Source: Oligoflexia bacterium
GTDB lineage: Bacteria > Bdellovibrionota > UBA1018
NCBI GenBank assembly: GCA_963758495.1
Contig: CAVWVI010000003.1
Location: 512,001-576,000 of the forward strand
Length of the DNA stretch: 64,000 nucleotides
Direction of reading: 5' to 3'
This document shows, in pieces, positions 20,533-47,372 of this stretch. A program made the translations under genes and the position numbers. Position 1 is the first letter of the stretch. Each line of letters starts with the position of its first letter. The notes under the pieces were generated by a model. The model saw only the letters and a program-made list of their open reading frames with translations. It was not told the origin of the DNA and did no database searches.

Positions 20533-22155
20533 CTAGTGGAATATGAGCCGCACCCCAACGTGCGCGTAGCAGTTCGAAGGAACAACGTGGTCGCGAGACC
20601 CAGACCGCAGAAACCTCGCCTTATACGCAAAGGAACCGCCGCGGAGGACGCGACGCGGACCCCTATCGTAAAGATCGCTTGTCCAAGTATACACGTTCCC
20701 CCGAGCATCATAGATCCCTGCAATCGGTCGCTTCGATCTTACCTTCTGCACCTGACTTCCATCATACACTGCATAATTACCCAGCTCCCTCTCAGGAAAG
20801 GGATAAGGTCCAGCATGAATTTGTTTGTCAGCCCCAAGACGAGCCAGGTATTCCGCCTCGGCACTGCTGATCAACCTCGGGATTAACCTATTTCCGTTCA
20901 ATTTACTTTTTAGCTTTTCTACAAATGCATCCGCCTCATATGCAGTAATTCCGTTGGCGGGCAAATCCATCTCGCTTTCATCCCAGTTCTTAATCTTATA
21001 ACATCCTTGCAGCGCCGGTTTTCTACCCATGACCGCCATCCACTGACGCCGTGTAATATGCGTATCCATCGACTTAAATGAACCCACTGTCACTCTGTGT
21101 GGATACTCTTCCCAATTATATCGACCGGCTTCGCCTGCTGGTGTTCCCATATCGAACGTTCCACCGGGAAGCGCAACAGCATTGAGCCCCGCAATCCCTC
21201 CTATATTCTCGATCCTTCCTTCTACGACTCCTCCTGACGACGGTGTCTCCGCAACTACCTCCCCAGGAAGAGGAACTCGGGAAATCCCCCCAGCACTGGA
21301 ATCCAACCAATGAAACTCTTCAATCGCATTCAAGATGATATGATAACTACCCGAGGGCAACGCGGTCCTACAGAAAGGACATCTTTGATCCCTTGCAGAT
21401 CCCTCTTTTAAACATTTTTCACAAAAATCTTGGCCACAGCACGGCGTTGTCGCTGAATTGCCCGTATGCATGTTCCCATCGATAAGAACACTCTCCCCTA
21501 CAGTGCCCGGAGTCTCCAAACAAATCTTACAACTGGAGTCCATCGTCCGATAGGCAGATGCCTGATGATCCCACCGAGAATGTCCTTCCACTTCATGGGT
21601 GGTATCCAGTGCATCTCCCCAAGGAAAAAACTGATGCACTCGCGTAAGCTGATTCTTCAAGTTTGGCTGCTTAAATAAGCTCGCATTTCTACTTTCCTGA
21701 GCCAGCATTGCCGAGTCAAACTGAGGCGAATTGAGGATTCGCGCCATCACGTCTTTTCGATTATTTTGGGCCGCCAGAATAAAAGGGGTGGCCTGCCTTC
21801 CCTCATACTTAAGAGACACATCCAACTTAGCCCCCTTGTTCATGAGAAGCGCCACAATGTCGGCATTCCCTTTGGCCGCCGCCAGTCCCAACGGAAACCA
21901 CCCGTCCGAGCGCTTCTCGTTCAGATTGATCTTCGACATTTTTTCCGAATTCTCTAGAATCACCTTCGCGTGTTCGACCGTCTGTGCCTGTTCCTGCTCA
22001 GAACCTTGGCCTAGTTGGGTCAGGACAGTCATCAATTCTTCGTACTCCGGCCCCACCACTGCCTGCGCAGAAGTGCTCAATAGAAGTCCCAACACGAAGA
22101 TCCAGTTCTGGGCCCTGAAAGATTTGTGTTCGAATCGCATCAAGAAACGCGCCAT
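20533..22155 (-). CDS. Secreted ankyrin + RING-finger + FGE-sulfatase (C-type-lectin fold) protein
   Basis: Signal peptide ending AQA; PLGLAAAKGNADIVALLMNKGA ankyrin; CKIC...CCGQDFCEKC...CPFC; GGTFDMG, YDARGNVYTW and RVLRGGSF FGE motifs. Confidence 0.85.
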   Translation of the reverse strand: MARFLMRFEHKSFRAQNWIFVLGLLLSTSAQAVVGPEYEELMTVLTQLGQGSEQEQAQTVEHAKVILENSEKMSKINLNEKRSDGWFPLGLAAAKGNADIVALLMNKGAKLDVSLKYEGRQATPFILAAQNNRKDVMARILNSPQFDSAMLAQESRNASLFKQPNLKNQLTRVHQFFPWGDALDTTHEVEGHSRWDHQASAYRTMDSSCKICLETPGTVGESVLIDGNMHTGNSATTPCCGQDFCEKCLKEGSARDQRCPFCRTALPSGSYHIILNAIEEFHWLDSSAGGISRVPLPGEVVAETPSSGGVVEGRIENIGGIAGLNAVALPGGTFDMGTPAGEAGRYNWEEYPHRVTVGSFKSMDTHITRRQWMAVMGRKPALQGCYKIKNWDESEMDLPANGITAYEADAFVEKLKSKLNGNRLIPRLISSAEAEYLARLGADKQIHAGPYPFPERELGNYAVYDGSQVQKVRSKRPIAGIYDARGNVYTWTSDLYDRGPRRVLRGGSFAYKARFLRSGSRDHVVPSNCYAHVGVRLIFH

Positions 22156-31105: not shown

Positions 31106-32482
31106 TCAGTTTTGAACTAGATCCAAAATCCTCTTGAGCTCTTTCAGTCTCTCCGTTTTGGATCGATTTTTTATTCTCTCCCAGTCTCGGTAACTGATTC
31201 GTATGACCTTCCAGCCTTCATCACGAAGAATGAAATCAAGCATTTGATCTTGGGCACTCAAGATCTCCTGGCCATTTCTTAGTTGAAAGTGATGCGGACC
31301 ATCAAATTGAATAATTAACTTGGAAGAAGGTACTGCAAAATCAACGTGAGTTGCAGTACTTTCAATCCAATACTCTTCCCGCAAGTCTTGAGGATAAAAA
31401 ACTCGAATATCTTTACCGATGGCCTTCTGAGCATTAGATATTCTAACTCCTTGAGCCTTAAATCGAGAAGAGGCCTCTTCCAAGCGACGAATGATCGGAG
31501 AAGGCATAAGAATTTTGAATCTTGCAAATAAAACTCCCCTAGCTAAAGAAAGCTGATGAAGCTCTATAAGATTAAAATCCCCAATTATCTTTAGGGCCCT
31601 TTTTTTCCAGGCTTCTAAGTAATGCTCTGTAGGCTGAACACCTAAAACTGAAAATGCATAAATTGAATTAGAAAGCCCCTGAGATTTAAAATTTTCAATG
31701 AAATAAATAGCCCTATTCTGCCATACCGCTAAGAAGTGATCTTCAGGATGAATTCCTAATACTGAAAATGCATAGAGTGAGTTAGAAAGCTCCTGAGACT
31801 TAAAGCTTTCAATAGAATGGATTGCCTGCGTCTGCCAGACCTCTATGAAGTGATCTGTAGGATGAATTCCTAATCCTGAAAATGCATAGAGTGAGTTAGA
31901 AAGGCCCTGAGATGTAAAGCTTTTAATTAAATCAATCGCCTGACTCTGCCAAGCCGCTAAAAAATCATCTGTGGGATGAATTCCTAATCCTGAAAATGCA
32001 TAGAGTGAGTTAGAAAGCTCCTGAGATTTAAAGCTTTTAATTAAATGAATCGCCTGACTCTGCCAAGCCGCCAAAAAATCATCTGTGGGATGAATTCCTA
32101 ATCCTGAAAATGCATAGAGTGAGTTAGAAAGCTCCTGAGCATTAAAACTATTCATCTGACCTAAGGCAGATTTCAGCCAAGATTGAATAAAAGAATCTGG
32201 GATAGAATGAATGCGTCGAGCTTTCTTAAGCTTTGCTAAAGAATGTAAACTCATAGCTAGGTTAATTTTATTAAAACGAGGTAATAATGGAGTTACTCTG
32301 CCAAACCAGGCCTGAACGTCCTGGTCCTTCACTCTCCATGGATTTTGAGACATTTCACGAATCTCATATGACACATCACTAGGCCGTTCAATACTCCAAG
32401 CGGGTGTAAGTAAATTTAAGCCACTTCCCAGTGTAATACACAGAACCAGCAGGGAAATCATTTCCCTCATTAATTTCTTCAT
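31106..32482 (-). CDS. Secreted 38-aa-repeat (OPR-like) protein with C-terminal RAP domain, paralog A (5 core repeats)
   Basis: GGGAG RBS before ATG 32482; signal peptide ending AWS; repeats FxSQ(E/G)LSNS(L/I)YAFS..; RAP-like VD...QFDGPHHF...GWKVIRISYRDW. Confidence 0.85.
   Translation of the reverse strand: MKKLMREMISLLVLCITLGSGLNLLTPAWSIERPSDVSYEIREMSQNPWRVKDQDVQAWFGRVTPLLPRFNKINLAMSLHSLAKLKKARRIHSIPDSFIQSWLKSALGQMNSFNAQELSNSLYAFSGLGIHPTDDFLAAWQSQAIHLIKSFKSQELSNSLYAFSGLGIHPTDDFLAAWQSQAIDLIKSFTSQGLSNSLYAFSGLGIHPTDHFIEVWQTQAIHSIESFKSQELSNSLYAFSVLGIHPEDHFLAVWQNRAIYFIENFKSQGLSNSIYAFSVLGVQPTEHYLEAWKKRALKIIGDFNLIELHQLSLARGVLFARFKILMPSPIIRRLEEASSRFKAQGVRISNAQKAIGKDIRVFYPQDLREEYWIESTATHVDFAVPSSKLIIQFDGPHHFQLRNGQEILSAQDQMLDFILRDEGWKVIRISYRDWERIKNRSKTERLKELKRILDLVQN
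31577..32146 (-). repeat. 5 x 114-bp intragenic tandem repeat
   Basis: Five 38-codon units from TTT at 32146 to 31577. Confidence 0.92.
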
Positions 32483-32632
32483 ATTTTTCGATCTCCCTGA
32501 TCTTTTTCTGAGCAATACCAGTGATAATGAAATTAAAGTCTACGCGGATAACGGGAATTTAACAAAAAAATTAAATAGTCTGCGGAATCAGACAAACTTA
32601 AAAGCCTGTGTGAAAAAAACTCACAAATCCCA

Positions 32633-34243
32633 TCACACTCCGTTTTGAACTTGATCCAAAATGCTCTTGAACTCTTTCAGTCTCTCCGTTTGGGATCGAT
32701 CCTTTATTCTCTCCCAGTCTCGGTAACTGATTCGTATGACCTTCCAGCCTTCATCACGAAGAATGAAATCAAGCATTTGATCTTGGGCACTCAAGATCTC
32801 CTGGCCATTTCTTAGTTGGAAGTGATGCGGACCGTCAAATTGAATAATTAACTTGGAAGAAGGTACTGCAAAATCAACATAGCTCGCAATAGCGTCACTC
32901 CAATACTCTTCTCGCAAGTCCTGAGGATAAAGAACTCGAATATCGTTACCAACGGCCTTCTGAGTTTTGGATATTGTGACTCCTTGGGCCTTAAACCTAG
33001 AAGAAGCCTCCTCCAAGCGACGAATGATCGGAAAAGGCATAAGAATTTTGAATCTTGCAAATAAAACTCTCCTAGCTAAAGAAAGCTGATGAAGCTCTGC
33101 AAGATTAAAATCTCCAATTATCTTTAGAGCGCTTTTCTTCCAGGCTTCTAAGTAATGCTCTGTAGGCTGAACACCTAAAACTGAAAATGCATAAATTGAA
33201 TTAGAAAGCTCCTGAGATGTAAAGCTTTCAATAGAATGGATTGCCTGCGTCTGCCAGACCTCTAGGAAGTGATCTTTAGGATGAGTGCCTAAAACTGAAA
33301 ATGCATAGAGTGAATTAGAAAGGCCCTGAGACTTAAAGCTTTCAATAGAATGGATTGCCTGCGTCTGCCAGACCTCTATGAAGTGATCTGTAGGATGAAT
33401 TCCTAATCCTGAAAATGCATAGAGTGAGTTAGAAAGCTCCTGAGAGTTAAAGCTTTTAATTAAATCAATCGCCTGACTCTGCCAAGCCGCTAAAAAATCA
33501 TCTGTGGGATGAATTCCTAATCCTGAAAATGCATAGAGGGAGTTAGAAAGCTCCTGAGAGTTAAAGCTTTTAAATAAATGAATCACCTGACTCTGCCAAG
33601 CCGCTAAAAAATCATCTGTGGGATGAATTCCTAATCCTGAAAATGCATAAATTGAATTAGAAAGCTCCTGAGATGTAAAGCTTTTAATGGAATGAATTGC
33701 CTGACTCTGCCAAGCCGCTAAAAAGTCATCTGCCGGCTGAATTTTTAATACTGAAAATGCATAAAGTGAGTTAGAAAGTCCCTGAGATGTAAAGCTTTTA
33801 ATGGAACGAATTGCCTGCGTCTGCCAGACCTCTAGGAAGTGATTTGTGGGATGAATTCCTAATCCTGAAAATGCATAAATTGAGTTAGAAAGCTCCTGAG
33901 AGTTAAAGCTATTGATTTGACTTAAGGCAGATTCCAGCCAAGATTGTATAAAAGAATCTGAGATGAAATGAATGCGTCTAGCTTTCTTAAGCTTTGCTAA
34001 AGAATGTAAACTCATAGCTAGATTCATTTTACTAAAACGAGGTAATAATGGCGTTGCTCTGCCAAACCAGGCCTGAACGTCCTGGTCCTTCACTCTCCCT
34101 GGATTTTGAGACATTTCGCGAATCTCGTGTGCCAAATTATTAGGCCGTTCAATGCTCCAAGCGGGTGTAAGTAAATTTAAGCTACTTCCCAGTATAATAC
34201 ACAGAACCAGCAGGGAAATCATTCCCCTCACTAATTTTTTCAT
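32633..34243 (-). CDS. Secreted OPR-like/RAP protein, paralog B (7 core repeats)
   Basis: Tandem duplicate of paralog A, including ~80 bp of upstream sequence; two more 38-aa units. Confidence 0.85.
   Translation of the reverse strand: MKKLVRGMISLLVLCIILGSSLNLLTPAWSIERPNNLAHEIREMSQNPGRVKDQDVQAWFGRATPLLPRFSKMNLAMSLHSLAKLKKARRIHFISDSFIQSWLESALSQINSFNSQELSNSIYAFSGLGIHPTNHFLEVWQTQAIRSIKSFTSQGLSNSLYAFSVLKIQPADDFLAAWQSQAIHSIKSFTSQELSNSIYAFSGLGIHPTDDFLAAWQSQVIHLFKSFNSQELSNSLYAFSGLGIHPTDDFLAAWQSQAIDLIKSFNSQELSNSLYAFSGLGIHPTDHFIEVWQTQAIHSIESFKSQGLSNSLYAFSVLGTHPKDHFLEVWQTQAIHSIESFTSQELSNSIYAFSVLGVQPTEHYLEAWKKSALKIIGDFNLAELHQLSLARRVLFARFKILMPFPIIRRLEEASSRFKAQGVTISKTQKAVGNDIRVLYPQDLREEYWSDAIASYVDFAVPSSKLIIQFDGPHHFQLRNGQEILSAQDQMLDFILRDEGWKVIRISYRDWERIKDRSQTERLKEFKSILDQVQNGV
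33110..33907 (-). repeat. 7 x 114-bp intragenic tandem repeat
   Basis: Seven 38-codon units from TTT at 33907 to 33110. Confidence 0.92.
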
Positions 34244-34420: not shown

Positions 34421-36320
34421 ATTTCAATCCACAGGCCCGCGAAGGGCGCGACCATGCAATTCAATTCGCGAAGCTGATATTAAAAAGTTTCAATCCACGC
34501 GCCCGTGAGGGGCGCGACCAGTCAGAGTAATAGACATCCACTTTTTTCATCGTTTCAATCCACGCGCCCGCGAGGGGCGCGACTTGCTTTAAAACATAGG
34601 CGTCAAGCTGATCAAATGTTTCAATCCACGCGCCCGCGAGGGGCGCGACCCGCTTGCATCAACCGCTTTTTCTCATTTTGAGGTTTCAATCCACGCGCCC
34701 GCGAGGGGCGCGACTCGATATTACTGATGGACATAGGATACATACAATGTTTCAATCCACGCGCCCGCGAGGGGCGCGACGTGTTCCTTCGGATCTTTGG
34801 GCGGGAGAAGCTGACGTTTCAATCCACGCGCCCGCGAGGGGCGCGACAGAGACGATGGCCGCATAGTGAGTTTTGATAATGGTTTCAATCCACGCGCCCG
34901 CGAGGGGCGCGACTCACTAACTCGGACGGGATACATTAACCATAAAGTTTCAATCCACGCGCCCGCGAGGGGCGCGACTTAGCGATGGTGAGCTAGGTGG
35001 ATATATTGAAAAAGTTTCAATCCACGCGCCCGCGAGGGGCGCGACCCGATCAACCCGATCAACTCGCCAATGCTATAAAGTTTCAATCCACGCGCCCGCG
35101 AGGGGCGCGACGTTACGGCGGGAATACTTCAGCTTCGATTGCATGGTTTCAATCCACGCGCCCGCGAGGGGCGCGACGTAGAACAACTGTTACCGGCGGA
35201 TTTTCAAGAGAGTTTCAATCCACGCGCCCGCGAGGGGCGCGACTTTCAGCACTCCTAGACTATTAACTAACTGACTAGTTTCAATCCACGCGCCCGCGAG
35301 GGGCGCGACAGATATAAAACCACGCATGAGCTTCGTAATAAGTGTTTCAATCCACGCGCCCGCGAGGGGCGCGACTCAATCATCTTGGGCAGCTTACGTT
35401 TCGTGAAAGTTTCAATCCACGCGCCCGCGAGGGGCGCGACTTGCCTAGTGACTTAACCCCTCCCCATACTTTAGGTTTCAATCCACGCGCCCGCGAGGGG
35501 CGCGACAGTTGCATAAAAATACGTCATACTGATCCTCGGTGTTTCAATCCACGCGCCCGCGAGGGGCGCGACTTAATTCCTTGGTCTGCCAAAGATTTAA
35601 GCTCAGGTTTCAATCCACGCGCCCGCGAGGGGCGCGACATCGAGTGCAGAACTCATTCAAGCAACCGCTCGAAAGTTTCAATCCACGCGCCCGCGAGGGG
35701 CGCGACCTTCGGGAGGAAATTTACAGGTCAGCGATATCATGTTTCAATCCACGCGCCCGCGAGGGGCGCGACCTCAAGCCGGAAGAGATATAGAAGCAGC
35801 TTGCTAGTTTCAATCCACGCGCCCGCGAGGGGCGCGACGTTTGGGATTTAACTTGCCTAAACTTAGTATCATTGTTTCAATCCACGCGCCCGCGAGGGGC
35901 GCGACCGGTGGAGATGGCGCAGGAGATGTCACCTACGTATGAGTTTCAATCCACGCGCCCGCGAGGGGCGCGACAGGACATCCCGCGTTTTATCTTGTGC
36001 CGCATTCCTGTTTCAATCCACGCGCCCGCGAGGGGCGCGACCGCCGACCATTATCAATGCTTGCGACTTCCGATGACATGTTTCAATCCACGCGCCCCGC
36101 GAGGGGCGCGACCTGAGCGGCGTCAGCGTTATCGTGAGTTAATCATTGCAGTTTCAATCCACGCGCCCCGCGAGGGGCGCGACCCATCGTGATTTACATA
36201 ATGAGCGTTGTAGATCCCAATGTTTCAATCCACGCGCCCGCGAGGGGCGCGACGAAATGAAGTACTGGTGTATGGGCAATTCATGATAGTTTCAATCCAC
36301 GCGCCCGCGAGGGGCGCGAC
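34421..36320 (-). CRISPR. Type I-C CRISPR array, 29 repeats / 28 spacers (33-38 nt)
   Basis: Repeat GTCGCGCCCCTCGCGGGCGCGTGGATTGAAAC on the minus strand. Degenerate terminal repeat at 34421-34452, a 1-nt variant at 34487, and two 33-nt variants at 36080 and 36151. Leader lies toward cas2. Confidence 0.98.
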
Positions 36321-36490
36321 TCCTTAATGCTAAGATCATAAAATAACACAAAATTTCAAAGACCCATCGCTAATCGCGACTTCTATTTCAATAAAAAACA
36401 AAAAAGAACGACCACCGACGTATAAACTATTGAAATCATTAAAGCGCTAATCACTGGCACTAATGATGTCTCATTGAGGTTAGCGAAAAA
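36321..36490 (-). promoter_or_regulatory. CRISPR leader
   Basis: AT-rich 170 bp between the cas2 stop and the first canonical repeat; the degenerate repeat is at the opposite end. Confidence 0.8.
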
Positions 36491-36781
36491 TTATAAAATT
36501 AACGTGTCCTGGAAATCTGTTGCTTTCTTGGTACCGAAATGCTCTACTTTTGACTTCCAATTGCTTCCAAGATAGTAAAAACGCAAACTGTCTTTTTCTA
36601 CGTCATATTCTTTGAGTAACCTTGATTTTAACATTTCCCATTGGGTTGGGTCCACTTCACATTCAAATACAGAACATTGAACCCTCTGACCGAAATCTTG
36701 ACATGCTCTAGCTATTCGCCTCAATCTGCGACTCCCTGCCAAGTTTTTTGTTTCTACATCATAAGTAATTAACATTAGCAT
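36491..36781 (-). CDS. cas2: CRISPR-associated Cas2
   Basis: ITYDV, GQRVQCSVFEC and DSLRFY motifs; 96 aa. Confidence 0.96.
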   Translation of the reverse strand: MLMLITYDVETKNLAGSRRLRRIARACQDFGQRVQCSVFECEVDPTQWEMLKSRLLKEYDVEKDSLRFYYLGSNWKSKVEHFGTKKATDFQDTLIL

Positions 36782-36786
36782 AGGTA

Positions 36787-37818
36787 TTATTTAGATAAAA
36801 ATGCTGGATAATGATTTAAGTCGCCACGAATCGTCCGCGCTAACAGTAGAGCTTGCAAATGAATAACAATACCGATTGGTGCCTTTTCTCCGAGAAAAGG
36901 GTGGATTAATTCTTCCTTTTTTTTCTCTTGCCAAGCAACTAAAATTTCTCTTCTGACTTTATCATCAATTTGTACCGCACCCGTTTCAGAAATTTTAAAT
37001 CCTTCGGAACCAACCTGTTTAAGATTAATCAAACTCAGAACGAGACGATCTCCCAAGACTGCCCGAAATTCCTCCACCAAATCCAGCGCTAAACTAGGTC
37101 GACCTGGGCGGTCTCGATGCAGGAACCCTGCCTGAGGATCTAATCCAACCCCTTCAAGAGCCGAACGACAATCATGAGTAATTAAAGAATATACAAAAGA
37201 AAGCATAGCATTCAGTCTATCTAACGGTGGGCGACGACTACGAGTCTTAAACAAAAAATCTTCCTTTTGGCAGGTAATTAAATTGTTAAAACACGAAAAA
37301 TATTCGTCGGCTGCAGCCCCCTCTATTCCTCGTAATCGATCCAAATCAAATTCCATACCAGACTGCTCCTGCATTCGCCCCATTCGAAGCACAGTGCCCT
37401 TTAAAAGCTCCTTTGAATCACATTCAGAGTAATTTCTTAGATGCCTTTGTAATACCGATCGACTATTAGCAATTTTCGCAGCGACTATTGCTTTTGCAAT
37501 TAAAACAGACCGTTCCGTTAAATCAGATATTCGATATTGTTCCTTACGAAGGAGTATATTTCCAGAAACGGGTCCTTCTACTCGGGCTAAGAATTTACCA
37601 AATTCTGAAAAAAAACTGATCGATACACCACGTTCAGCACAAAAAGCCATCGCATATGGAGAAATCCATATAGGCCCAAATACCATCAACCCCTGAAACA
37701 TGTGAATTGGGAACTGTCCGAGTTTTTTTTCACCGGCCTCTACCACCAAAGTTTCATTTTCCTTACGTACACGTGAATTTTCAGTAGTGATATAGAGAAT
37801 ATTCAACAATTTCTTCAT
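36787..37818 (-). CDS. cas1: Type I-C Cas1
   Basis: MKKLLN.LY, GNILLR, LRGIEG, RRPPLD, GLDP..GFLH and DLVEEFR motifs. Confidence 0.97.
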   Translation of the reverse strand: MKKLLNILYITTENSRVRKENETLVVEAGEKKLGQFPIHMFQGLMVFGPIWISPYAMAFCAERGVSISFFSEFGKFLARVEGPVSGNILLRKEQYRISDLTERSVLIAKAIVAAKIANSRSVLQRHLRNYSECDSKELLKGTVLRMGRMQEQSGMEFDLDRLRGIEGAAADEYFSCFNNLITCQKEDFLFKTRSRRPPLDRLNAMLSFVYSLITHDCRSALEGVGLDPQAGFLHRDRPGRPSLALDLVEEFRAVLGDRLVLSLINLKQVGSEGFKISETGAVQIDDKVRREILVAWQEKKKEELIHPFLGEKAPIGIVIHLQALLLARTIRGDLNHYPAFLSK

Positions 37819-38474
37819 AAATCACCCGGTTTAAAAAGACTTTTAAAATAATGATCTGCTCTATTACTATCAGAATTAGGTTGACATAAATCCATCAAAG
37901 AACAATTGCGACATTTCTTTTCAAAAATTGGCAATGGGGTTCTCCCTGAATGAATCAGTTCATGTACATATTTTGCTACTGTTGCTGTCTCAGTGCGGAT
38001 AGCGTCATTCATCTGTACCCATTCACGACGATTTGGCTGGGCATAATAGAGAGCACCCTTAGAAATGGTAAGACCAAACATTTCTTCAAGACAGATTACT
38101 TGTGCACAAAGTTGAATTCTGTCTATATTAGTGCTTTTTTTTTGACCTCGCTTATATTCGATCGGACATGGTTGCCAAAGCCCCTCTCTTCCAGACAATG
38201 AAACTCCCTGTTGCGATCGAAAAAATTCAACAACATCGGCAATTCCACTTAAACCTAAACTATTTGATCTAATCCTCAAGCTCCGTGCAATAAATAGGTC
38301 TTTCCTTTGTTCAGATTGACCAGTATCTACCTTTTCGTGTAAAAGTTTACCTTGAGTCGTTAGAATATTTTCCGCCCAAACTTGCTCAATGTGAATCAAA
38401 GCACATTGCCTCTCACAAAAGGCGTAATGCTGAAGGGCTGAAATAGGTATAAAATCAACTTCAAAATAATTCAC
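37815..38474 (-). CDS. cas4: Cas4
   Basis: ISALQHYAFCERQ, DVVE, PIEYKRG, QLCAQ and CxxCSLxxxC motifs. Confidence 0.96.
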   Translation of the reverse strand: MNYFEVDFIPISALQHYAFCERQCALIHIEQVWAENILTTQGKLLHEKVDTGQSEQRKDLFIARSLRIRSNSLGLSGIADVVEFFRSQQGVSLSGREGLWQPCPIEYKRGQKKSTNIDRIQLCAQVICLEEMFGLTISKGALYYAQPNRREWVQMNDAIRTETATVAKYVHELIHSGRTPLPIFEKKCRNCSLMDLCQPNSDSNRADHYFKSLFKPGDL

Positions 38475-38506
38475 ATCAGAGATGTTCTAAACAATGGAGT
38501 TAGATG

Positions 38507-39364
38507 TTAATAGCCATTAATCTCTTCAGGAATTAAACCGTCAATCTGATCTATTCTATAAGTACCATCTGTATCCACTTTCAGGCTTCCGTGCACTTTA
38601 GACGAGGCACATTTCCCTTCTTTAGAGGAATGCCTCCACCAAATAACTTTAAGTACTTCCATACTGCCTTCTGGGCGGGCAGAAGAGGCGTCATTTTCAA
38701 ATAACTTCGGAAGGATATTTTTTATGACTTCAGCATCTGTATCGCTGAAACCAGTTCGCACGGCAAGTTGCGGATTCATGCTTCCGTAGGTGAGATAGAC
38801 TCCATAATCAACTCGATGTTTCATACCCATAGTATCAGAAGCACGCTTAGATCCATCACCCTCGCCATTTACACTTTTGGTAATCTGAGTGCTGCTTGTG
38901 CTAATTGGTTCAAGGCTAAATGCGGATTGTATCGTTACGGGGCCACGAATTCCAATAGAGACTCCAGTATCTCCCTCAAAATTGGTTTCTTCTTCACTTT
39001 TATTAATTTTTTTTTCATTTTTTTTGAAGGCGAGCAATTGACCAAATGTTCGAACATCCAACCAATTTTCACATGCTAATTTTGCTGTCTCTATTGAACT
39101 TAATTTTCTTCCAAGTTTTTCTTCTACTCTTTGGCGAATACTTTTACAATCATCAACCTTGCGATCATCAGATTGAACTAAAATAGAATGTCCATTTTCA
39201 AGTAATCGATCACGAATTTTGCGTTTGAGGCACACATCGGTTATCTCACCGAATCCTTCGTAGTTCGTACGAGGACGATTACCATTTAAAGGGTCACCAT
39301 TGGGATTTGCGTTTTTTACTCTAAGAATAATCGCAAAATCAATTTTATTTTGTAACGAACCCAT
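38507..39364 (-). CDS. cas7: Type I-C Cas7/Csd2
   Basis: NANPNGDP, DVCLKRKIRD, DVRTFG and FENDASSARP motifs. Confidence 0.96.
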   Translation of the reverse strand: MGSLQNKIDFAIILRVKNANPNGDPLNGNRPRTNYEGFGEITDVCLKRKIRDRLLENGHSILVQSDDRKVDDCKSIRQRVEEKLGRKLSSIETAKLACENWLDVRTFGQLLAFKKNEKKINKSEEETNFEGDTGVSIGIRGPVTIQSAFSLEPISTSSTQITKSVNGEGDGSKRASDTMGMKHRVDYGVYLTYGSMNPQLAVRTGFSDTDAEVIKNILPKLFENDASSARPEGSMEVLKVIWWRHSSKEGKCASSKVHGSLKVDTDGTYRIDQIDGLIPEEINGY

Positions 39365-39765
39365 TATTGCTCTCCTTTTGTGTTTTCAGTCTGTAAGTCG
39401 GATTTTTTTCTGTTCAGGTCCTGTCGTTGACAGTGATATCCTAGAAGAAATTCACCATTCAAGCGGACATCGCTTTGATACTCATTTAATTGAAAGAGAC
39501 AGGTGACCTCAGTCAGAAGATTTTTCATTACCTGTAAAAAAGGAGCCCTCTTTGCTTTGAGTCTGGCTTGGTAGGGTACCAAGGAAGTTTCTATATTCTT
39601 CCAAGTTGAAAAAGGACGATCAGCAAATCGCTGCATCAACTTGAATGCAGTAGTGTCACGGCTCTCACCTCCTACATGGAGAGCCCTTTCCTCAAGATGA
39701 TCAGCAATAGCAAGTAGTCGCCCATAGAGGTAGTCTCGGCTTGTTCGATCTGGTTCAAGGGCCAT
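39364..39765 (-). CDS. cas11c: Cas11c small subunit translated in-frame within cas8c (133 aa)
   Basis: AAAAGGAGTTATCAA-ATG at 39765, giving MALEPDRTSRDYLYGRLLA; this is the internal-start position established for type I-C. Confidence 0.8.
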   Translation of the reverse strand: MALEPDRTSRDYLYGRLLAIADHLEERALHVGGESRDTTAFKLMQRFADRPFSTWKNIETSLVPYQARLKAKRAPFLQVMKNLLTEVTCLFQLNEYQSDVRLNGEFLLGYHCQRQDLNRKKSDLQTENTKGEQ

Positions 39766-41289
39766 TTGATAACTCCTTTTTTCTTTAGAATTGCGTTCAT
39801 AATAACCTTTGAAAAGTGCGCAAGCAATGCCAAGAGTTTGTTCCCATTCTCTAGGATCTTTTATTCCTACGCGATTACAAGCCCTTCGGAAGACAGACTC
39901 AACCAGATCACGTGGAATTGGGGCTGAATCTAAAATACAAGGCAAAATCCGTTGAATTGTATGTTTTTTTAATTTGTCATCAATACGTTTCGAGAAACAT
40001 GCCTCTGCAATACTACTTGGACTTGGAGCGAAAATTTGCCATAGAATACCTGTTTTCCCTTTTGCTTTCGGATCCAGGAGATGCCAGGAAAAATCAGAGT
40101 GCCAATTTTCGATCCGTCGAAGAAATTCCGAGCTTTGCAATTCCCGGTAATAAACGATAGCTATTCTACCATCACTTGCTGAATCAAGACCTATCACTAC
40201 GATATCCTGAAGCTCTCCTAGTTTCGCCTTATATCCAGCTATCTTCTTATTCAGTTTTAATGCGAAGGTTTGGCCAAAATCAGATTCATTTTTTGAATCG
40301 CTATCCAGTGATTCTCCAAAAAGAATGGAAGTATCAGCAAAGGGATCTGGGATATCTTGGCCACCAGTCGCCCATGAAACAAACACAAGATTCCCGAATC
40401 GCTGGGACTGGCGTTTAATAAGCCACTGAAGCGCATTGTGGATTTTTTGGGAGGCTTCGCTAGACATGCCTACAGCTTGGCTGGCAACACTAAATCTGCC
40501 TCTAAATGTATAGCCCGTACTATCATTAGAAGAGATAAGTTTAGCTCCATCACCACTATGCCGAATTCGACCGGGGTGTTTTGTCGCCAATACTCCCACA
40601 TTCCCAGTTACAAAGCATAAACCCTTCTCGACACACTCAAGCGTTGAGTTATATAGAGTCCAAGCGTCGAACAATGACGGATCTTCCCAGGTAGTAGAGT
40701 TTGGATTTCCTGGTTCCTCTACTCTCCATCTAACAAATGCATCCCCTTGATCCATAGAGGTGGGAAGGACGCTGAAAATTTCATTCTTAAAGACCGCTGG
40801 CTTTTCGCTTTTTGGATTCCACATACAAGCGAGGGTAGCAGGTGAGTCCGTATGAAGAACATTGCAGCCGATTAAGTCAGCTACAACCGTTCCCTTGCTA
40901 ATATATTTAAAAACAGCATTTACTTTGGGGTGATTCGCAACTGGCGAAGACGCCCAGGCTTGTAACTGCTTTGAATATGAGTCGAAGTAAGAATCCTTCC
41001 TTCCACCAAAAGTCTTGTAGTCCTTCGCTATGTATTGAATTTTATCAGAAAGAGGATATGGTGCGTCATTAGCAGTTCGAGTCGCAGACTTTTCTGTGGT
41101 TGGAATAATCGTCTCTATCTTGAGAATGACTTTAGCAGTGTTAAAATTGCCATCTAGATCAATAACAATCTCAATATGAGCATTCTGCAACTTATGGGCG
41201 ACAGGTACTAATATGTTCTTTCCTGTGCTTGTATGAGTAGTATTTGAAACTAAATTGAAGGTTTCATATAATTTTTGGCTCCAACTCAT
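39364..41289 (-). CDS. cas8c: Type I-C Cas8c/Csd1
   Basis: MSW.QKLYETF, AKLISSND, SQKIHNALQWL, YLYGRLLA and FLLGY motifs. Confidence 0.95.
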   Translation of the reverse strand: MSWSQKLYETFNLVSNTTHTSTGKNILVPVAHKLQNAHIEIVIDLDGNFNTAKVILKIETIIPTTEKSATRTANDAPYPLSDKIQYIAKDYKTFGGRKDSYFDSYSKQLQAWASSPVANHPKVNAVFKYISKGTVVADLIGCNVLHTDSPATLACMWNPKSEKPAVFKNEIFSVLPTSMDQGDAFVRWRVEEPGNPNSTTWEDPSLFDAWTLYNSTLECVEKGLCFVTGNVGVLATKHPGRIRHSGDGAKLISSNDSTGYTFRGRFSVASQAVGMSSEASQKIHNALQWLIKRQSQRFGNLVFVSWATGGQDIPDPFADTSILFGESLDSDSKNESDFGQTFALKLNKKIAGYKAKLGELQDIVVIGLDSASDGRIAIVYYRELQSSEFLRRIENWHSDFSWHLLDPKAKGKTGILWQIFAPSPSSIAEACFSKRIDDKLKKHTIQRILPCILDSAPIPRDLVESVFRRACNRVGIKDPREWEQTLGIACALFKGYYERNSKEKRSYQMALEPDRTSRDYLYGRLLAIADHLEERALHVGGESRDTTAFKLMQRFADRPFSTWKNIETSLVPYQARLKAKRAPFLQVMKNLLTEVTCLFQLNEYQSDVRLNGEFLLGYHCQRQDLNRKKSDLQTENTKGEQ

Positions 41290-41996
41290 TCAACCACTCC
41301 GTCGTCAGAGGTGATTGAAAAATTACATCCAATTTCAAACTTTTTCGGCATCATCTCGCGTACCAGGTGACGAACTTTACACACTTCAGGACGATCAAAT
41401 TGAATAATCCCACTCTTCATCACAGGAGAGAAAAGGCGCTTATAGAGCTTATTTTCTCCGTTTTCATCAGGATAATCAAAACCGTGAAACATCAGACCAA
41501 ACCCGAGTTCATCCAAATCATCGTAATCACTCTTGCCGGTACCAAATTCACAAGGCTCCACATAAGCCTGACAGTCTCTTGTCCCCAGGTAAACGTCCAG
41601 GCTTCCACCTTTATCAAGCTTTCTTAAGGCAATCTGGTAGTGCTTACCATCGTTGCGATCTTTCTCCAATTCTGAACGAAAGAGATTCCATTCGAAGTGG
41701 GCTTGAACTTGGTATTCAACATCCGCCAAGAATGTATAAATAGATAACGAATTTCCCCCTCCATAGTTCAAAGGTTTAGTCCCTTTCGTTTGGGTTCGAA
41801 TTTTCTTCATCACGCGAACCTTATCAATGACCCAAATAAAAGTGGGTTTCCAATAGATAGATTTGGCTATGCCTTTTAAAGCTTCATAAGTAGGAATGTG
41901 GTAAGAGCACTTCTCTCCCCCAATTTTTGTCAAAGGATCTGTAAAAAGAGCATGAGGACCCCAAACTTTGAATTCAATACAATTTTTCGGTTTCAT
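41286..41996 (-). CDS. cas5c: Type I-C Cas5c/Cas5d
   Basis: ALFTDP, SYHIPTYEAL, IYWKP and YLGTRDC motifs. Confidence 0.96.
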   Translation of the reverse strand: MKPKNCIEFKVWGPHALFTDPLTKIGGEKCSYHIPTYEALKGIAKSIYWKPTFIWVIDKVRVMKKIRTQTKGTKPLNYGGGNSLSIYTFLADVEYQVQAHFEWNLFRSELEKDRNDGKHYQIALRKLDKGGSLDVYLGTRDCQAYVEPCEFGTGKSDYDDLDELGFGLMFHGFDYPDENGENKLYKRLFSPVMKSGIIQFDRPEVCKVRHLVREMMPKKFEIGCNFSITSDDGVVE

Positions 41997-42016
41997 AGGG
42001 TATTCCAAAGTCTACT

Positions 42017-44500
42017 TTAACAATTTATAAAACTCATTGAGTTGACCATTTCGAGACTAATGCCGAAATCATCACTATAGTACTGTTTATCCAAGTAATA
42101 GATACCTGTGCTTTTTTGAATTTCCTGCATAGCACCCTCCTGAGAAAATTTCAAAATTAAATTTGGATACAGATTTACAGTATAGCGCTGAGCTTTTCTA
42201 AGAAGCTCAAATTGTTTTTCTACTTGAAAGGCACCGCATAGTTCAGTTACAAGGGCTTCGCCTTCTTTGCCATACGGTACAATAACTCCTTGTGTGGAGA
42301 TATCCATGGCTTTGAATTCCTTTCCCGCAGACATGAAGGAATGTCTTAAAAAGATCGCAGGCGCACAGTCCTTTGTTCTCTTATGTTCTGAAACAGAAAT
42401 CGAATTTTCTCCCAATAAATTCAAGAGTCGATCGGAACGTCCGATATAACCTGAACTTTGATCTCCAATTGGGTAATCCATCTCTCCTCTTCGATCAAAA
42501 AAATTATACTGATAGTATCGTTGCATTGCACTTGGACTAAGAAGACTATTACCTAGTAGAGATGGGCTGCTCTCAAATTCACGTAAGATGCGATCAGTAT
42601 GCTTTTGTCCTGTAGAGATATCTTCAAGCGATTTAATATTCTCTTGAGCGGCGTTTACTACATAAACTCTGCCCACTTTTATTCGACCGTTTCGGTTACA
42701 GCGCCCAGCAGCTTGGGCTATGGAATCCAATCCTGCGCTACAGCGAATCACAGAATTAAAATCTAAATCCACCCCTGCTTCAATCAATTGTGTACTAATA
42801 CATAACACTGGATCTCCCCTTTCCAGCATTGCACGAATCTGATTCAGAATAACCAACCGGTGAGCTGGGCACATCGCTGTACTGAGATGAAAGACAGGAA
42901 ACATCGAAGGCGCTTTGCAGAGCTGAAAAAGGGCTTGCGCCATCTGTTTTGTATTTACAATGACAAGGCAACTATTCGCCTGGGAAATCTGATCCAAGGC
43001 CAATTTCGCAATTTCTTCATTGGTCCAACCTATAGACCTAGTGTAATTAAGAACTTCCACCCGTTTGAGGTCATCAAAAAGACTCCGGACATCTGACATT
43101 ATTTCGTTGCGATCGTCATATTTCATCATCCCTTTTGTGGGTTCAACTTGATTTAGAAGTGGTTGCGTCGCGGTACATAGTACAACCGTGCTCCCACATT
43201 GCTCCACGAGAAAATTCACGGCATTGTTAAACAAATGAATGCAGCGAATGGGCAGAGTCTGAATTTCATCAAAGATAATCAACGAATTGGCCAATTGATG
43301 TAGGCGTCGAGCCCCACGGGTACCACCACTAAATAGAGACTCGAGCAATTGAACGCTCGTGGTATAAATCACTGGAGCATCCCAGTTTTCAGTGAGGATC
43401 TTGGCCTTCCAGGTCTGCTCTTCGGGAGTCAGATTAGAATGATGTTCCAAAACAATCAAACTAGGTTCAACGTTGTCGGATGTTGGGTCCAAAATGTTAC
43501 GAACAGTTTCGGCATTTTGATCAATGATAGTGGTAAAAGGTATAACAAAAATGATGCGGTCAAGATGATGTTTTTTTGCGTGATGCAAGCCAAAGCGGAG
43601 GCTAGCAAGGGTTTTCCCTCCACCTGTAGGAACAGTCAGAGTAAAAATCCCTTTGCCCCTTTGAGCACTTTCGAAACAACCCTGTGAGATTTTTCGCCGA
43701 ATTTCATCAATTCTGTTTTGAATCGGAATATTCTCCAAATATTTTTCAAGTCGTTCAATCAAGAGATCCCACTGGGGATATGAGCCATTGTAGCACCTAA
43801 GTGCAGCCTTCGGATTTTCGAAGTCTGCACTATCAATTCGATCCCCGTCAATAAGACAACTGAAGAGAAAACGAACTAACAGACCTTCCTGAATTGCGCG
43901 GGTTTGGCGAGACTGGTTGTATTTTTGAATAGATGCAATGACCTTTTTTAAGGGAATTAATAAGTCTTCAGAGTCCAAAATACGCTGAACCTCTCGAAAT
44001 ATTTCTGGATCGGCTTTTTCAGTGACTTCTATTAAGTGCGTTTTTTTATCATCTTTCTGAATTCTGCGTTCCCAATTATTCTCTCCACTAGGCTTCAGAC
44101 AGTCAATAAGCCCAGAATGATGTGAGACAATACAGAGAGTGAGTATTTGCTCCAAAAATTTCTCGGCAGGGGTGTCTTTCCCCTTGAACTGCTGCCGTAT
44201 ATACTGAGCCCCAGCAGTGGAATGATCAATCTTGCCCTTCAGTCCTGAGGCATCAACATATTCCTCATCCTCATCAGGATTGAGTAAACCAACCGCAGAT
44301 TGGATATATGATTGGAATTCTTGACTGAATTTTCCAAGATCATGTAACAATCCAACCAGTGCGCCATAGTCGCCAAGGCCTATCTTGGCCCCGAATATCC
44401 GACTTTTTGCACTCACTCCTTGTAGGTGGCTAATGACAGATTGATTTGTCCCATCCTTGCGTGCATGCGCAATATAATTATCTTGGTTAGTCTTACTCAC
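42017..44500 (-). CDS. cas3: Cas3 HD nuclease-helicase
   Basis: LHDLGK, DHS, SHH, DGD, PTGGGKT, DEIQ, TAT, TQLIEAGVD and QAAGRCNR motifs. Confidence 0.96.
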   Translation of the reverse strand: MSKTNQDNYIAHARKDGTNQSVISHLQGVSAKSRIFGAKIGLGDYGALVGLLHDLGKFSQEFQSYIQSAVGLLNPDEDEEYVDASGLKGKIDHSTAGAQYIRQQFKGKDTPAEKFLEQILTLCIVSHHSGLIDCLKPSGENNWERRIQKDDKKTHLIEVTEKADPEIFREVQRILDSEDLLIPLKKVIASIQKYNQSRQTRAIQEGLLVRFLFSCLIDGDRIDSADFENPKAALRCYNGSYPQWDLLIERLEKYLENIPIQNRIDEIRRKISQGCFESAQRGKGIFTLTVPTGGGKTLASLRFGLHHAKKHHLDRIIFVIPFTTIIDQNAETVRNILDPTSDNVEPSLIVLEHHSNLTPEEQTWKAKILTENWDAPVIYTTSVQLLESLFSGGTRGARRLHQLANSLIIFDEIQTLPIRCIHLFNNAVNFLVEQCGSTVVLCTATQPLLNQVEPTKGMMKYDDRNEIMSDVRSLFDDLKRVEVLNYTRSIGWTNEEIAKLALDQISQANSCLVIVNTKQMAQALFQLCKAPSMFPVFHLSTAMCPAHRLVILNQIRAMLERGDPVLCISTQLIEAGVDLDFNSVIRCSAGLDSIAQAAGRCNRNGRIKVGRVYVVNAAQENIKSLEDISTGQKHTDRILREFESSPSLLGNSLLSPSAMQRYYQYNFFDRRGEMDYPIGDQSSGYIGRSDRLLNLLGENSISVSEHKRTKDCAPAIFLRHSFMSAGKEFKAMDISTQGVIVPYGKEGEALVTELCGAFQVEKQFELLRKAQRYTVNLYPNLILKFSQEGAMQEIQKSTGIYYLDKQYYSDDFGISLEMVNSMSFINC

Positions 44501-46895: not shown

Positions 46896-47372
46896 CTAAA
46901 TTCGGCCGCTGAATGGAATTTCTTTGTCAAACACCGTCAAAACTTTGTTTATTTCCTTATCTGAGGGTAATTCGACACCCTTTGGAGCAGCAGCATCTAC
47001 CTGATGAACCTGTATTCCTTTTTGCCGAATGTGAAACGCAATTCGTTGCCATCGTTGTCTCCAAAGGCATTCTCGACGTTTGTATTCAGCCACCTCAAGC
47101 TTGAGCCTCTCAACCTCACCCGCGAGTTCCTGATTTTCTTGAGTAGCTTCTTGTTGGCTTTTAATGGCCCCCCTGCCCAGAGACTTCTTAGCATAATCGT
47201 AAGCTGCTTTAATTTCTGACTTAGCTTGAAGTGACTGTCGACTGAACCCGAACCTCTCTCCAAGGGCTTCCCAGGTTAGTTTCGATCCAAATTGTCCGGC
47301 TGCCCAACGGTCGAGATCAGAAACAATGGTAGAAACATCAGATTTGGTCATTTTGCGAAATCGTTTAGTCAT
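46896..47372 (-). CDS. Small coiled-coil accessory protein (GinD/TnpC-like)
   Basis: KLTWEAL...FSRQSL...IK.AY HTH-like region plus coiled coil; overlaps the third recombinase gene. Confidence 0.75.
   Translation of the reverse strand: MTKRFRKMTKSDVSTIVSDLDRWAAGQFGSKLTWEALGERFGFSRQSLQAKSEIKAAYDYAKKSLGRGAIKSQQEATQENQELAGEVERLKLEVAEYKRRECLWRQRWQRIAFHIRQKGIQVHQVDAAAPKGVELPSDKEINKVLTVFDKEIPFSGRI

Follow-up and report, generated by a model that had tools for sequence, protein, structure and literature searches.

Two adjacent genes in a 64,000-nucleotide stretch of Oligoflexia DNA, here called the window, encode proteins that carry near-copies of a 38-amino-acid repeat. The initial annotation had read two positions of these repeats, 2 and 5, as hypervariable and as an RVD-like recognition code, and the question is whether the two residues select what the proteins bind and what that ligand would be. 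Target choice by OPR, HPR, and FASTK repeats is described as undeciphered in the accessible text of reports from 2017 (PMC5541062) and 2025 (PMC12691811), and the algal and human members are too degenerate for single residues to be isolated. Bacterial OPR-RAP proteins and a draft OPR code are already known; the value of the present genes is as a near-uniform natural scaffold for testing such a code.

Two tandem OPR-RAP genes

Both genes lie on the reverse strand. Gene A (positions 31106 to 32482), whose product equals database protein P0001, encodes 458 amino acids, and its tandem paralog, gene B (32633 to 34243), encodes 536. Each has a likely ATG start, and the reading frames can be extended to TTG codons at 32515 and 34276, respectively. 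Helix-turn-helix (OPR) repeats with a period of 114 nucleotides, or 38 amino acids, occur in five copies in A (31577 to 32146) and seven in B (33110 to 33907), with one degenerate repeat on each flank of either array. The interval given initially, 31577 to 33907, indeed runs from the end of repeat A5 to the start of repeat B1. Outside the repeats the genes share 91 to 92% nucleotide identity, and the best explanation, toward which we incline slightly as a whole, is that they are tandem duplicates reshuffled by repeat gain, loss, and conversion. One 170-base piece from one DNA sequencing run was identical to the window, and none of the runs listed as carrying the window sequence was of the RNA type.

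A and B almost certainly belong to the OPR-RAP family. The structure model (pLDDT, 92.3) is an alpha-solenoid with two antiparallel helices per repeat. Its top structural matches were RESC6, mitoribosomal OPR/RAP proteins, ASA2, and FASTKD4 (Z, 20.5; rmsd, 2.9; 272 residues aligned), with OPR/RAP structures at Z 20 to 25; the best match was ASA2, an ATP synthase subunit. A profile match to RESC6 had an E value of 9e-27, and the Pfam FAST_1 family scored 34.2 bits in B, over the cut-off of 27.4, and 25.1 in A, under it. The repeats contain the OPR-type consensus (F..Q.L.N..W/YA...L; compare the Paulinella motif FxxQxxxxxLNAxAKL). The literal PPPEW motif, typical of many but not all algal OPR proteins, was not in the A and B repeats, which keep only P20 and W28; it is not required for membership, since CCS2 also lacks it.

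The RAP domain

The RAP core of A (Pfam PF08373; E value, 2.2e-11; 44 bits against a cut-off of 24.2) spans 31139 to 31312, and the candidate catalytic residue Asp381 falls just upstream of the match. In B, the domain extends over 32684 to 32875, from candidate catalytic Asp457 to the motif D470-G471-x-x-H474 (Pfam match, 32684 to 32845; E value, 1.5e-10). D457, D470, G471, and H474 were invariant in 24 of 24 aligned sequences, and the motif, which reads QFDG rather than EVDG, is intact in both proteins. RAP is said to resemble the DNA endonuclease Vsr in the portions of the literature available, which also describe FASTKD4 as being without nuclease activity and the key FASTKD5 residue as lying outside the expected RAP site. 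FASTKD4 has an Asn at the position of the Vsr His, whereas A and B keep both Asp and His. We give even chances that the domain is an active nuclease.

Comparison with known repeat proteins

Like A and B, green algal OPR-RAP proteins (Chlamydomonas NCC1/NCC2, NCL family; Arabidopsis RAP) combine two-helix repeats of 38 amino acids with a RAP domain at the C terminus, and the accessible sections of two articles describe them as tandem paralogs (PMC8635915, PMC5449608). A and B differ in being bacterial and only two genes, in starting with a Sec-like signal and not with an organelle transit peptide, and in having no PPPEW as such; their repeats are near-copies, whereas motifs from a single algal protein are usually spread over different clusters (PMC13126933). 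The OPR-RAP proteins of Orientia, Rickettsiales, and Coxiellaceae (OtRAP, PMC7729196; Coxiella, in the part of PMC8635915 available) are 31 to 35% identical to A and B and share with them the repeat consensus, homogeneous arrays, the Q before the RAP DG motif, and variation at positions 2, 3, and 5; the examples aligned were without a hydrophobic signal sequence, unlike A and B. Such a sequence is present in the closest relatives, proteins from Bdellovibrionia metagenome-assembled genomes with 61 to 64% identity. Human FASTKD4 and FASTKD5, trypanosome RESC6/RESC8, and apicomplexan HPR/RAP mitoribosomal proteins combine a solenoid with a Vsr-like RAP fold, as A and B do, and are RNA associated, but they are only 9 to 17% identical and have degenerate repeats.

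TAL effectors and the SKWP effectors (RipS/XopAD) also have near-identical tandem repeats with focused variation and come from exporting bacteria. TALE repeats are 33 to 35 amino acids long, carry their RVD at adjacent residues 12 and 13, and read DNA. A and B are not TAL effectors: their repeats have 38 residues, positions 12 and 13 are invariant, and the variable sites are three residues apart. Nor are they SKWP proteins, whose 42-residue repeats, type III secretion, and RdRP-like unit in place of RAP are given in the available text of PMC13667924; the 38-residue repeats are without SKWP, and the XopAD profile match (E value, 6.5e-7) reached 27 bits against a cut-off of 2000. A TALE-like DNA code that directs a Vsr-like DNA nuclease to DNA such as that of prey, phage, or host, and is possibly tied to the adjacent CRISPR-Cas locus, is very improbable. 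The likeness of RAP to Vsr would suit it, as would the distance of about 180 bases between the start of gene B and a type I-C array; however, there was no TALE among the structural or profile matches listed, the period of 38 residues and the nonadjacent variable residues do not fit, and the characterized nucleic-acid-binding relatives bind RNA. The 20 related loci checked, many of which are short, all lacked a CRISPR-like array, and the 28 spacers did not match genes A and B, with one 17-base match elsewhere. We therefore set the CRISPR link aside and treated the adjacency as incidental.

The system that would work most like A and B is the PPR protein, in which one helical hairpin serves one nucleotide and the code consists of two nonadjacent small polar residues, according to the part of PMC8635915 available. 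By analogy, the PPR code residue at the N-cap may be equivalent to the N-cap position here. PPR proteins differ in their 35-residue period and consensus, and a Pfam search of A and B gave no match to a PPR family.

Variation among the repeats of A and B

The residue pairs at positions 2 and 5 are NE, KE, TG, KE, and KG in A and NE, TG, TE, NE, NE, KG, and TE in B, exactly as first annotated. Likewise exact were three comparisons: A2 and B4 differ at position 2 only, A3 and B5 at 2 and 5, and A5 and B7 at 2, 5, and 31. These are three of five C-terminally aligned pairs; the two omitted were A4/B6, with nine differences that include position 5 and not 2, and A1/B3, with five that include position 2 and not 5. 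The repeats had been called otherwise identical, but the 12 vary at 25 of 38 positions, and differences are not confined almost to positions 2 and 5, since A1 and B1 differ at nine positions that include neither; A1 and B4 differ only at 3 and 34. Over the five aligned pairs, positions 2 and 5 take 7 of 20 differences (P = 6e-4, taking 2 of the 25 variable positions as the expectation), a value that becomes about 0.19 once the 300 possible position pairs are allowed for.

By entropy over the 12 repeats, position 2 ranked fourth (1.58 bits, after 34, 30, and 35), and position 5 (0.92) fell below 14 others. Of the nearest-neighbor links between repeats (n = 10), 9 had a change at position 2, 6 had one at position 34, and 3 had one at position 5. 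Position 2 was first in 12 of 13 phasings and tied in the other, which rules out a repeat-boundary artifact for it in the window. Of the two positions proposed as hypervariable, then, 2 stands out within the window and 5 does not. The pN/pS ratio was 2.67 for position 2 over these 10 links and, with 49 links from other loci, 1.65 for position 5; conversion between repeats makes both unusable as tests of selection.

In the structure model, position 2 is not in helix 1, where it had been placed, but in a two-residue loop before helix A, at the N-cap. Position 5 is in the first turn of helix A and, on a helical wheel, at the edge of the face formed by positions Q4, N8, Y11, and 15. N or T at an N-cap followed three residues later by E is an ordinary helix capping box. 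This fits an account without a code, in which the N-cap and first-turn sites 2 and 5 tolerate change, a few preexisting variants are shuffled by short gene conversion between repeats of 82 to 98% identity, the pairs were hand-picked, and the solenoid binds RNA with little sequence specificity or serves as a scaffold. The four base differences between A3 and B5, all within codons 2 and 5, resemble a conversion patch; the states at position 2 are all one base apart; and both the count at position 34 and the corrected statistic above agree with it. We nevertheless judge this account unlikely. Gly at position 5 is encoded by three different codons in four repeats, and further evidence against it comes from other lineages.

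Positions 5 and 2 in other lineages

The protein comparison used one closest repeat pair per lineage, picked without the tested position, in 23 lineages; 44 of 67 lineages, having no close pair, were left out, as were 158 of 230 proteins (157 without three distinct 38-residue pattern-matching repeats and the window's own P0001). Differences between sister repeats were most frequent at position 5 (0.59) and position 2 (0.46), first and second of the 38 positions, with the next at 0.37. Position 5 was first in six of six phasings, which rules out a boundary artifact for it in the family, and lay above seven helix-B positions presumed to be exposed (Wilcoxon P = 0.004). In loci from bacteria and metagenomes, where links above the distance thresholds were dropped, together with L035 (a near-duplicate of L034) and L032, L041, and L100 (single or spurious repeats), position 5 was first at all three thresholds (6 of 54, 21 of 217, and 46 of 595 changes). 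In the protein set, bootstrap values for its first place were only 0.51 to 0.89, and 7 of 20 untied lineages opposed it. Support for position 2 across the family was mixed: two of the three thresholds applied to the bacterial loci put it 11th, with position 3 second, and it was 6th in two of six phasings of the protein set (P = 0.10), so that re-phasing does not rule out a boundary artifact for it there.

Among 330 repeats, position 5 was occupied by E, G, D, N, A, H, and S, with 0% K/R and 1% hydrophobic residues, and its entropy of 2.8 bits was below that of exposed positions (3.3 to 3.8). Position 5 thus switches fast among few, small polar states throughout the family. G, N, H, and S are poor residues for a first helix turn, so capping alone does not explain position 5. 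The account without a code is also at odds with the first rank of position 5 in other lineages and in every phasing and with its rate of change, more than double that of the helix-B positions presumed to be exposed, from a smaller set of residue types.

A different alternative takes positions 2 to 5 as a diversifying contact surface, either for a protein or peptide held in armadillo/importin-like fashion via invariant N8 and the aromatic residue at 11 or for escape from host recognition. The charge of the repeats (8 of 12 net acidic, 2 neutral), the protein-scaffold members ASA2 and ASA3 of the fold, and importins at Z of about 10 to 12 point in this direction, and diversification is common among the repeat proteins that host-associated bacteria secrete. 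We consider it improbable, as the importin matches lie far under the Z of 20 to 25 of OPR/RAP structures, the attached nuclease-fold domain keeps its conserved D and H, and escape from recognition predicts something other than a narrow polar alphabet.

Genome context and predicted export

A signal-peptide-like N terminus of about 30 amino acids, with a basic start, a hydrophobic core, and a putative cleavage site, is encoded at 32393 to 32482 in A (hydropathy maximum, 2.85); that of B, at 34154 to 34243 (maximum, 3.32), likewise has a putative cleavage site and is modeled as a helix at residues 2 to 25 with low pLDDT. Signal-like N termini also occur in P0002, P0004, L007, and L002. Judged by these N termini, A and B are probably exported.

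A and B were the only paralogs detected in the genome, which is 92% complete, by tblastn, two profile searches over 13,850 open reading frames, and the RAP family. No close relative was found in any of 36 same-family genomes searched, and weak matches in 2 of 24 other genomes of the order were, by eye, divergent repeat-plus-RAP-like proteins. The genome has 85 Ank_2 matches, against 0 to 15 in 30 relatives, and 18 of 32 ankyrin open reading frames passed a crude filter for a hydrophobic N terminus; both counts favor the proposed eukaryotic partner. The ATP/ADP translocase, a marker of intracellular life, had no match in the genome; the control was equally without one, which makes the result uninformative. 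Whether A and B act in a eukaryote is, in our estimate, evenly balanced.

A proposed RNA-reading mechanism

Taken as a whole, the reading toward which we lean is that a PPR-like solenoid reads single-stranded RNA, mainly via position 5, and aims the RAP domain, in proteins that are probably exported. Position 5 is quite probably a site of ligand specificity, and it may correspond to the published primary determinant of OPR proteins. In that proposal, one position is anticipated to act as the main determinant and three upstream positions contribute (PMC13126933). By analogy with the family, it is fairly likely that the ligand would be RNA, read base by base, and a role of position 2 in co-specifying it is tentative, at slightly under even chances. 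Given the OPR-RAP/FASTK-like family, the nonadjacent residues, and the probable RNA ligand, the logic would be PPR-like rather than that of the adjacent, DNA-reading TALE RVD. Of the initial reading as an RVD-like code, the ranking of positions 5 and 2, first and second outside the window, is supported, with position 5 leading every test there, and the fold does belong to an RNA-binding repeat family.

Within the concave groove, each repeat would take up one nucleotide of a single-stranded RNA; invariant Q4, N8, and Y11 would make up the constant portion of the pocket, position 5 would be the main base selector, and positions 2 and 3, at the N-cap and helix start, would tune the selection. A would read about 5 to 7 nucleotides and B about 7 to 9, with different preferences, and the array would position the Vsr-like RAP domain so that it cuts or processes the RNA held there. 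In a weaker step, a Sec-type signal would export the proteins, and the RNA they act on would belong to a eukaryotic partner, probably a protist, and possibly to its organelles. In OPR proteins, single-stranded rRNA occupies the inner groove, and the contacts solved are mainly charge based and to the backbone (PMC8660880). Given such contacts, the mostly acidic repeats and the G or V at position 15, where K or R is common across the family, count against an RNA ligand. ASA2 as the best structural match, the FASTKD4 and FASTKD5 findings, and the QFDG form of the RAP motif also weigh against the proposed mechanism. NCC1 and NCC2 were retargeted by single OPR substitutions, as described in the accessible parts of PMC8635915 and PMC5449608, and mutagenesis of FASTKD5 and FASTKD4, in the text available, included no residues mapping to repeat positions 2 or 5.

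The pairs A2/B4 and A3/B5, differing by one and two residues, are natural near-controls, which makes the role of positions 2 and 5 directly testable, and the family-wide count independently picks out position 5. We consider it doubtful that A and B go so far as to be naturally occurring RNA endonucleases that can be programmed, exported by a Bdellovibrionota-like bacterium associated with protists, reading one base per repeat via positions 2 to 5 and re-aimed by codon swaps between repeats; if so, they would be to RNA what TAL effectors are to DNA, as well as a scaffold ready for solving the OPR code. If the code is true, a compact array that comes with a nuclease fold attached would provide a new programmable tool for RNA, and it would suggest that some bacteria manipulate the RNA of their eukaryotic partners.

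Tandem OPR-RAP genes

The minus strand carries two tandem genes, A (window positions 31106 to 32482; 458 aa, with five 38-aa repeats, A1 to A5) and B (32633 to 34243; 536 aa, with seven, B1 to B7). They share 91 to 92% DNA identity outside the repeats, and the duplication takes in some 100 bases upstream as well. Both proteins begin with about 30 residues that are basic and then hydrophobic, followed by a short helical region, a degenerate repeat, the 38-aa array, a second degenerate repeat, and a RAP domain (PF08373) that scores over the cutoff (E values of 2e-11 in A and 1.5e-10 in B). AlphaFold2 models B (pLDDT 92.3, pTM 0.82) as an alpha-solenoid of two-helix units with an alpha/beta domain at the end. 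Among solved structures, the model's top match was ASA2 (Z score, 24.8; RMSD, 6.0; 421 residues aligned), and it also matched RESC6 (24.6, 4.5, and 400, respectively), Chlamydomonas mL115 (24.5, 4.7, and 401), a Toxoplasma mitoribosomal RAP protein (23.6, 2.9, and 345), and human FASTKD4 (20.5, 2.9, and 272). A and B are bacterial OPR-RAP proteins, probably a secreted pair with unusually uniform repeats, and a genome-wide search found no others in the source genome.

Repeat variation within the window

The initial annotation proposed an RVD-like recognition code at positions 2 and 5 of otherwise identical repeats. Its twelve position-2/5 pairs and three pairwise repeat comparisons proved exact on rechecking. 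The repeats are not otherwise identical: 25 of the 38 positions vary, position 2 ranks fourth by entropy, and 14 positions rank above position 5. Two of the five C-terminally aligned A/B pairs had been omitted: A4/B6, which has nine differences, and A1/B3, which has five. The five pairs together have 20 differences, and 7 of these lie at position 2 or 5, an enrichment with a P value of 6e-4 against the 25 variable positions and of about 0.19 once the post hoc choice of two positions is allowed for. The feature is real and was partly overstated. Among 10 links joining each repeat to its nearest neighbor, changes occurred nine times at position 2, six at position 34, four at position 25, and three at position 5. 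When the repeat unit was phased in 13 ways, position 2 came top in 12 and tied in one. Given these link counts, the rephasing, and the corrected P value, the evidence from the window alone points to position 2 and is no more than suggestive. Only position 2 is more changeable in the window than position 34, which was left out of the annotation; the link changes at position 34 are all nonsynonymous, and its residues across A1 to B7 are H, D, Y, K, and R. Positions 34 and 37 are likewise high for change in bacterial loci.

Variation in other lineages

Since the window names positions 2 and 5 beforehand, other lineages provide a fair test. Homologous DNA loci from GTDB and metagenomes were analyzed through nearest-neighbor repeat links at three distance thresholds; at the loosest, a single endosymbiont whose repeats are 37 aa long supplies half of the links. 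Position 5 ranked first at all three (6/54, 21/217, and 46/595 changes); position 2 ranked 2, 11, and 11, with position 3 second where position 2 was 11th. In the protein set, 230 homologs were reduced to 72 with at least three distinct 38-aa repeats and then to 67 lineage clusters, bacterial and eukaryotic mixed. One closest repeat pair per lineage was picked without the tested position, giving 23 lineages with a pair at eight or fewer differences. The share of these lineages that differed was 0.59 at position 5, 0.46 at position 2, 0.37 at position 23, and 0.35 at position 15. Position 5 came top in all six phasings (bootstrap, 0.51 to 0.89); position 2 took second place in four of them and sixth in the other two. 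Compared with the mean of seven helix-B positions presumed exposed on polarity (0.23), position 5 was higher in 13 lineages and lower in 7 (Wilcoxon P = 0.004); for position 2, the same comparison gave a P value of 0.10. The DNA and protein sets are not fully independent, because a few lineages occur in both.

Across 330 repeats, position 5 draws on E, G, D, N, A, H, and S, with no K or R and 1% hydrophobic residues, and its entropy of 2.8 bits lies below that of the seven presumed-exposed positions (3.3 to 3.8 bits). Such rapid change among few polar states looks like that of a code site. In this set, K at position 2 occurs in 57 cases, of which 47 have E at position 5 and none has G, a pattern from which the window departs, KG being present twice. 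The pN/pS ratio at position 5 is 1.65, above 1, yet exchange of sequence among repeats makes the ratio invalid as a test of selection. These outside data lend the code idea real support at position 5 and weaker backing at position 2, and such a code would work like that of PPR proteins and not like that of TALE proteins.

Placement of the variable positions and candidate function

In the AlphaFold2 model of B, the loop that joins helix B of one repeat to the following repeat's helix A consists of positions 1 and 2. This makes position 2 an N-cap, outside the helix 1 to which it had been assigned; position 5 lies within the first turn of helix A. A helical wheel puts the invariant Q4, N8, and Y11 on one face together with position 15, with position 5 at the edge of that face, and by analogy with PPR and OPR structures this face would line the groove. 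N or T at a cap with E three residues on is a classic capping box. The match of the repeats to this pattern makes tolerated capping variation at positions 2 and 5, plus conversion between repeats, the main rival explanation, which we consider unlikely.

The reading we favor is that the solenoid of A and B would read single-stranded RNA base by base, chiefly at position 5, and so position the Vsr-like RAP domain; on balance we lean slightly toward this account as a whole. Counting against it are the repeats themselves, 8 of 12 being net acidic between basic flanking regions and position 15 lacking the basic residue commonly found there in other family members, where solved OPR-RNA contacts are said to be mainly charge based (PMC8660880). 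The protein-scaffold role of some fold relatives and the shortness of a target of five to nine bases also count against RNA reading. In the RAP domain of B, residues D457, D470, G471, and H474 show no variation across 24/24 aligned homologs. The Vsr active site is described as pairing D51 with H69 (PMC11879112), and by analogy these may correspond to D457 and H474. FASTKD4 function is stated to require a conserved Asp (PMC5449608); FASTKD4 is reported as a non-nuclease and FASTKD5 as cleaving RNA (PMC12242768).

Relation to published work

We take the published OPR determinant to be OPR position 6, which would be position 5 here, with positions 2 to 4 upstream. One OPR position is described as the expected primary determinant, with three upstream positions contributing, an idea credited to a 2019 thesis (PMC13126933), and the basis of OPR specificity is elsewhere described as undeciphered (PMC5541062; PMC12691811). 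The pertinent passages of PMC10226603 and PMC6212722 give OPR/RAP family background only. Bacterial OPR or OPR-RAP proteins were already noted in Coxiella (PMC8635915) and in Orientia, where they were compared to SKWP effectors (PMC7729196). SKWP repeats are reported as similar to a Rickettsiella RAP protein (PMC13667924), and bacterial RAP is ascribed to horizontal transfer (PMC8190603). The literature searched, whose coverage was without Boulouis 2015, contained no account of how bacterial OPR-RAP arrays vary from position to position or of members bearing signal peptides; because of that coverage, positions 2 and 5 themselves should not be called new. The code idea is open to direct test.

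Relatives, genomic context, and lifestyle

No A/B gene was found in any of 36 genomes of the same family. Nearest among the named relatives are proteins from Bdellovibrionia MAGs (64% for the best segment, and 61%); these have signal-like starts and are in tandem in one MAG (locus L006). Next are proteins of Orientia and other Rickettsiales. Tandem paralogs with differing position-2/3/5 strings occur in other bacteria at L006:1-2986 and L009:790-6337. Two genomes of the same order encode divergent repeat-plus-RAP-like proteins (L002:673-3273 and L003:1-1956), one with a signal-like N terminus and many degenerate repeats, and an Orientia chuto member (L008:506-2137) has an in-frame stop within the repeat array. 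The repeat of A and B is also found with a 37-aa or 42-aa period at further loci (L013, L015, L016, L017; L019). A Rickettsiales endosymbiont of Peranema carries it at a 37-aa period in long arrays of up to about 20 copies, and a Coxiellaceae MAG has it in an SKW-containing form at a 42-aa period ahead of a RAP domain. The 37-aa and 42-aa arrays link HPR, OPR, and SKWP repeats.

A complete type I-C CRISPR-Cas locus (window positions 34421 to 44500) lies upstream of gene B, its start some 180 bases away, and comprises cas3, cas5d, cas8c/csd1, cas7, cas4, cas1, cas2, and an array of 29 repeats; no connection between this adjoining locus and the OPR-RAP genes was found. Farther along, positions 47368 to 52152 look like an integrated mobile element, with two adjoining tyrosine-recombinase-type genes (396 and 534 aa) and then a 676-aa ORF that has no NCBIfam match.

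The source genome, probably that of a member of Bdellovibrionota, also has 85 Ank_2 ankyrin matches in at least 32 ORFs, versus 0 to 15 in 30 relatives. Of 32 ankyrin ORFs, 18 satisfy a crude filter for a hydrophobic N terminus. Some ankyrin ORFs are clustered in tandem; examples of the expansion lie at C4:926036-935214 and at positions 20536 to 22155 of the window. Such a large set of exported eukaryote-like repeat proteins suggests that this bacterium may live in association with a protist.
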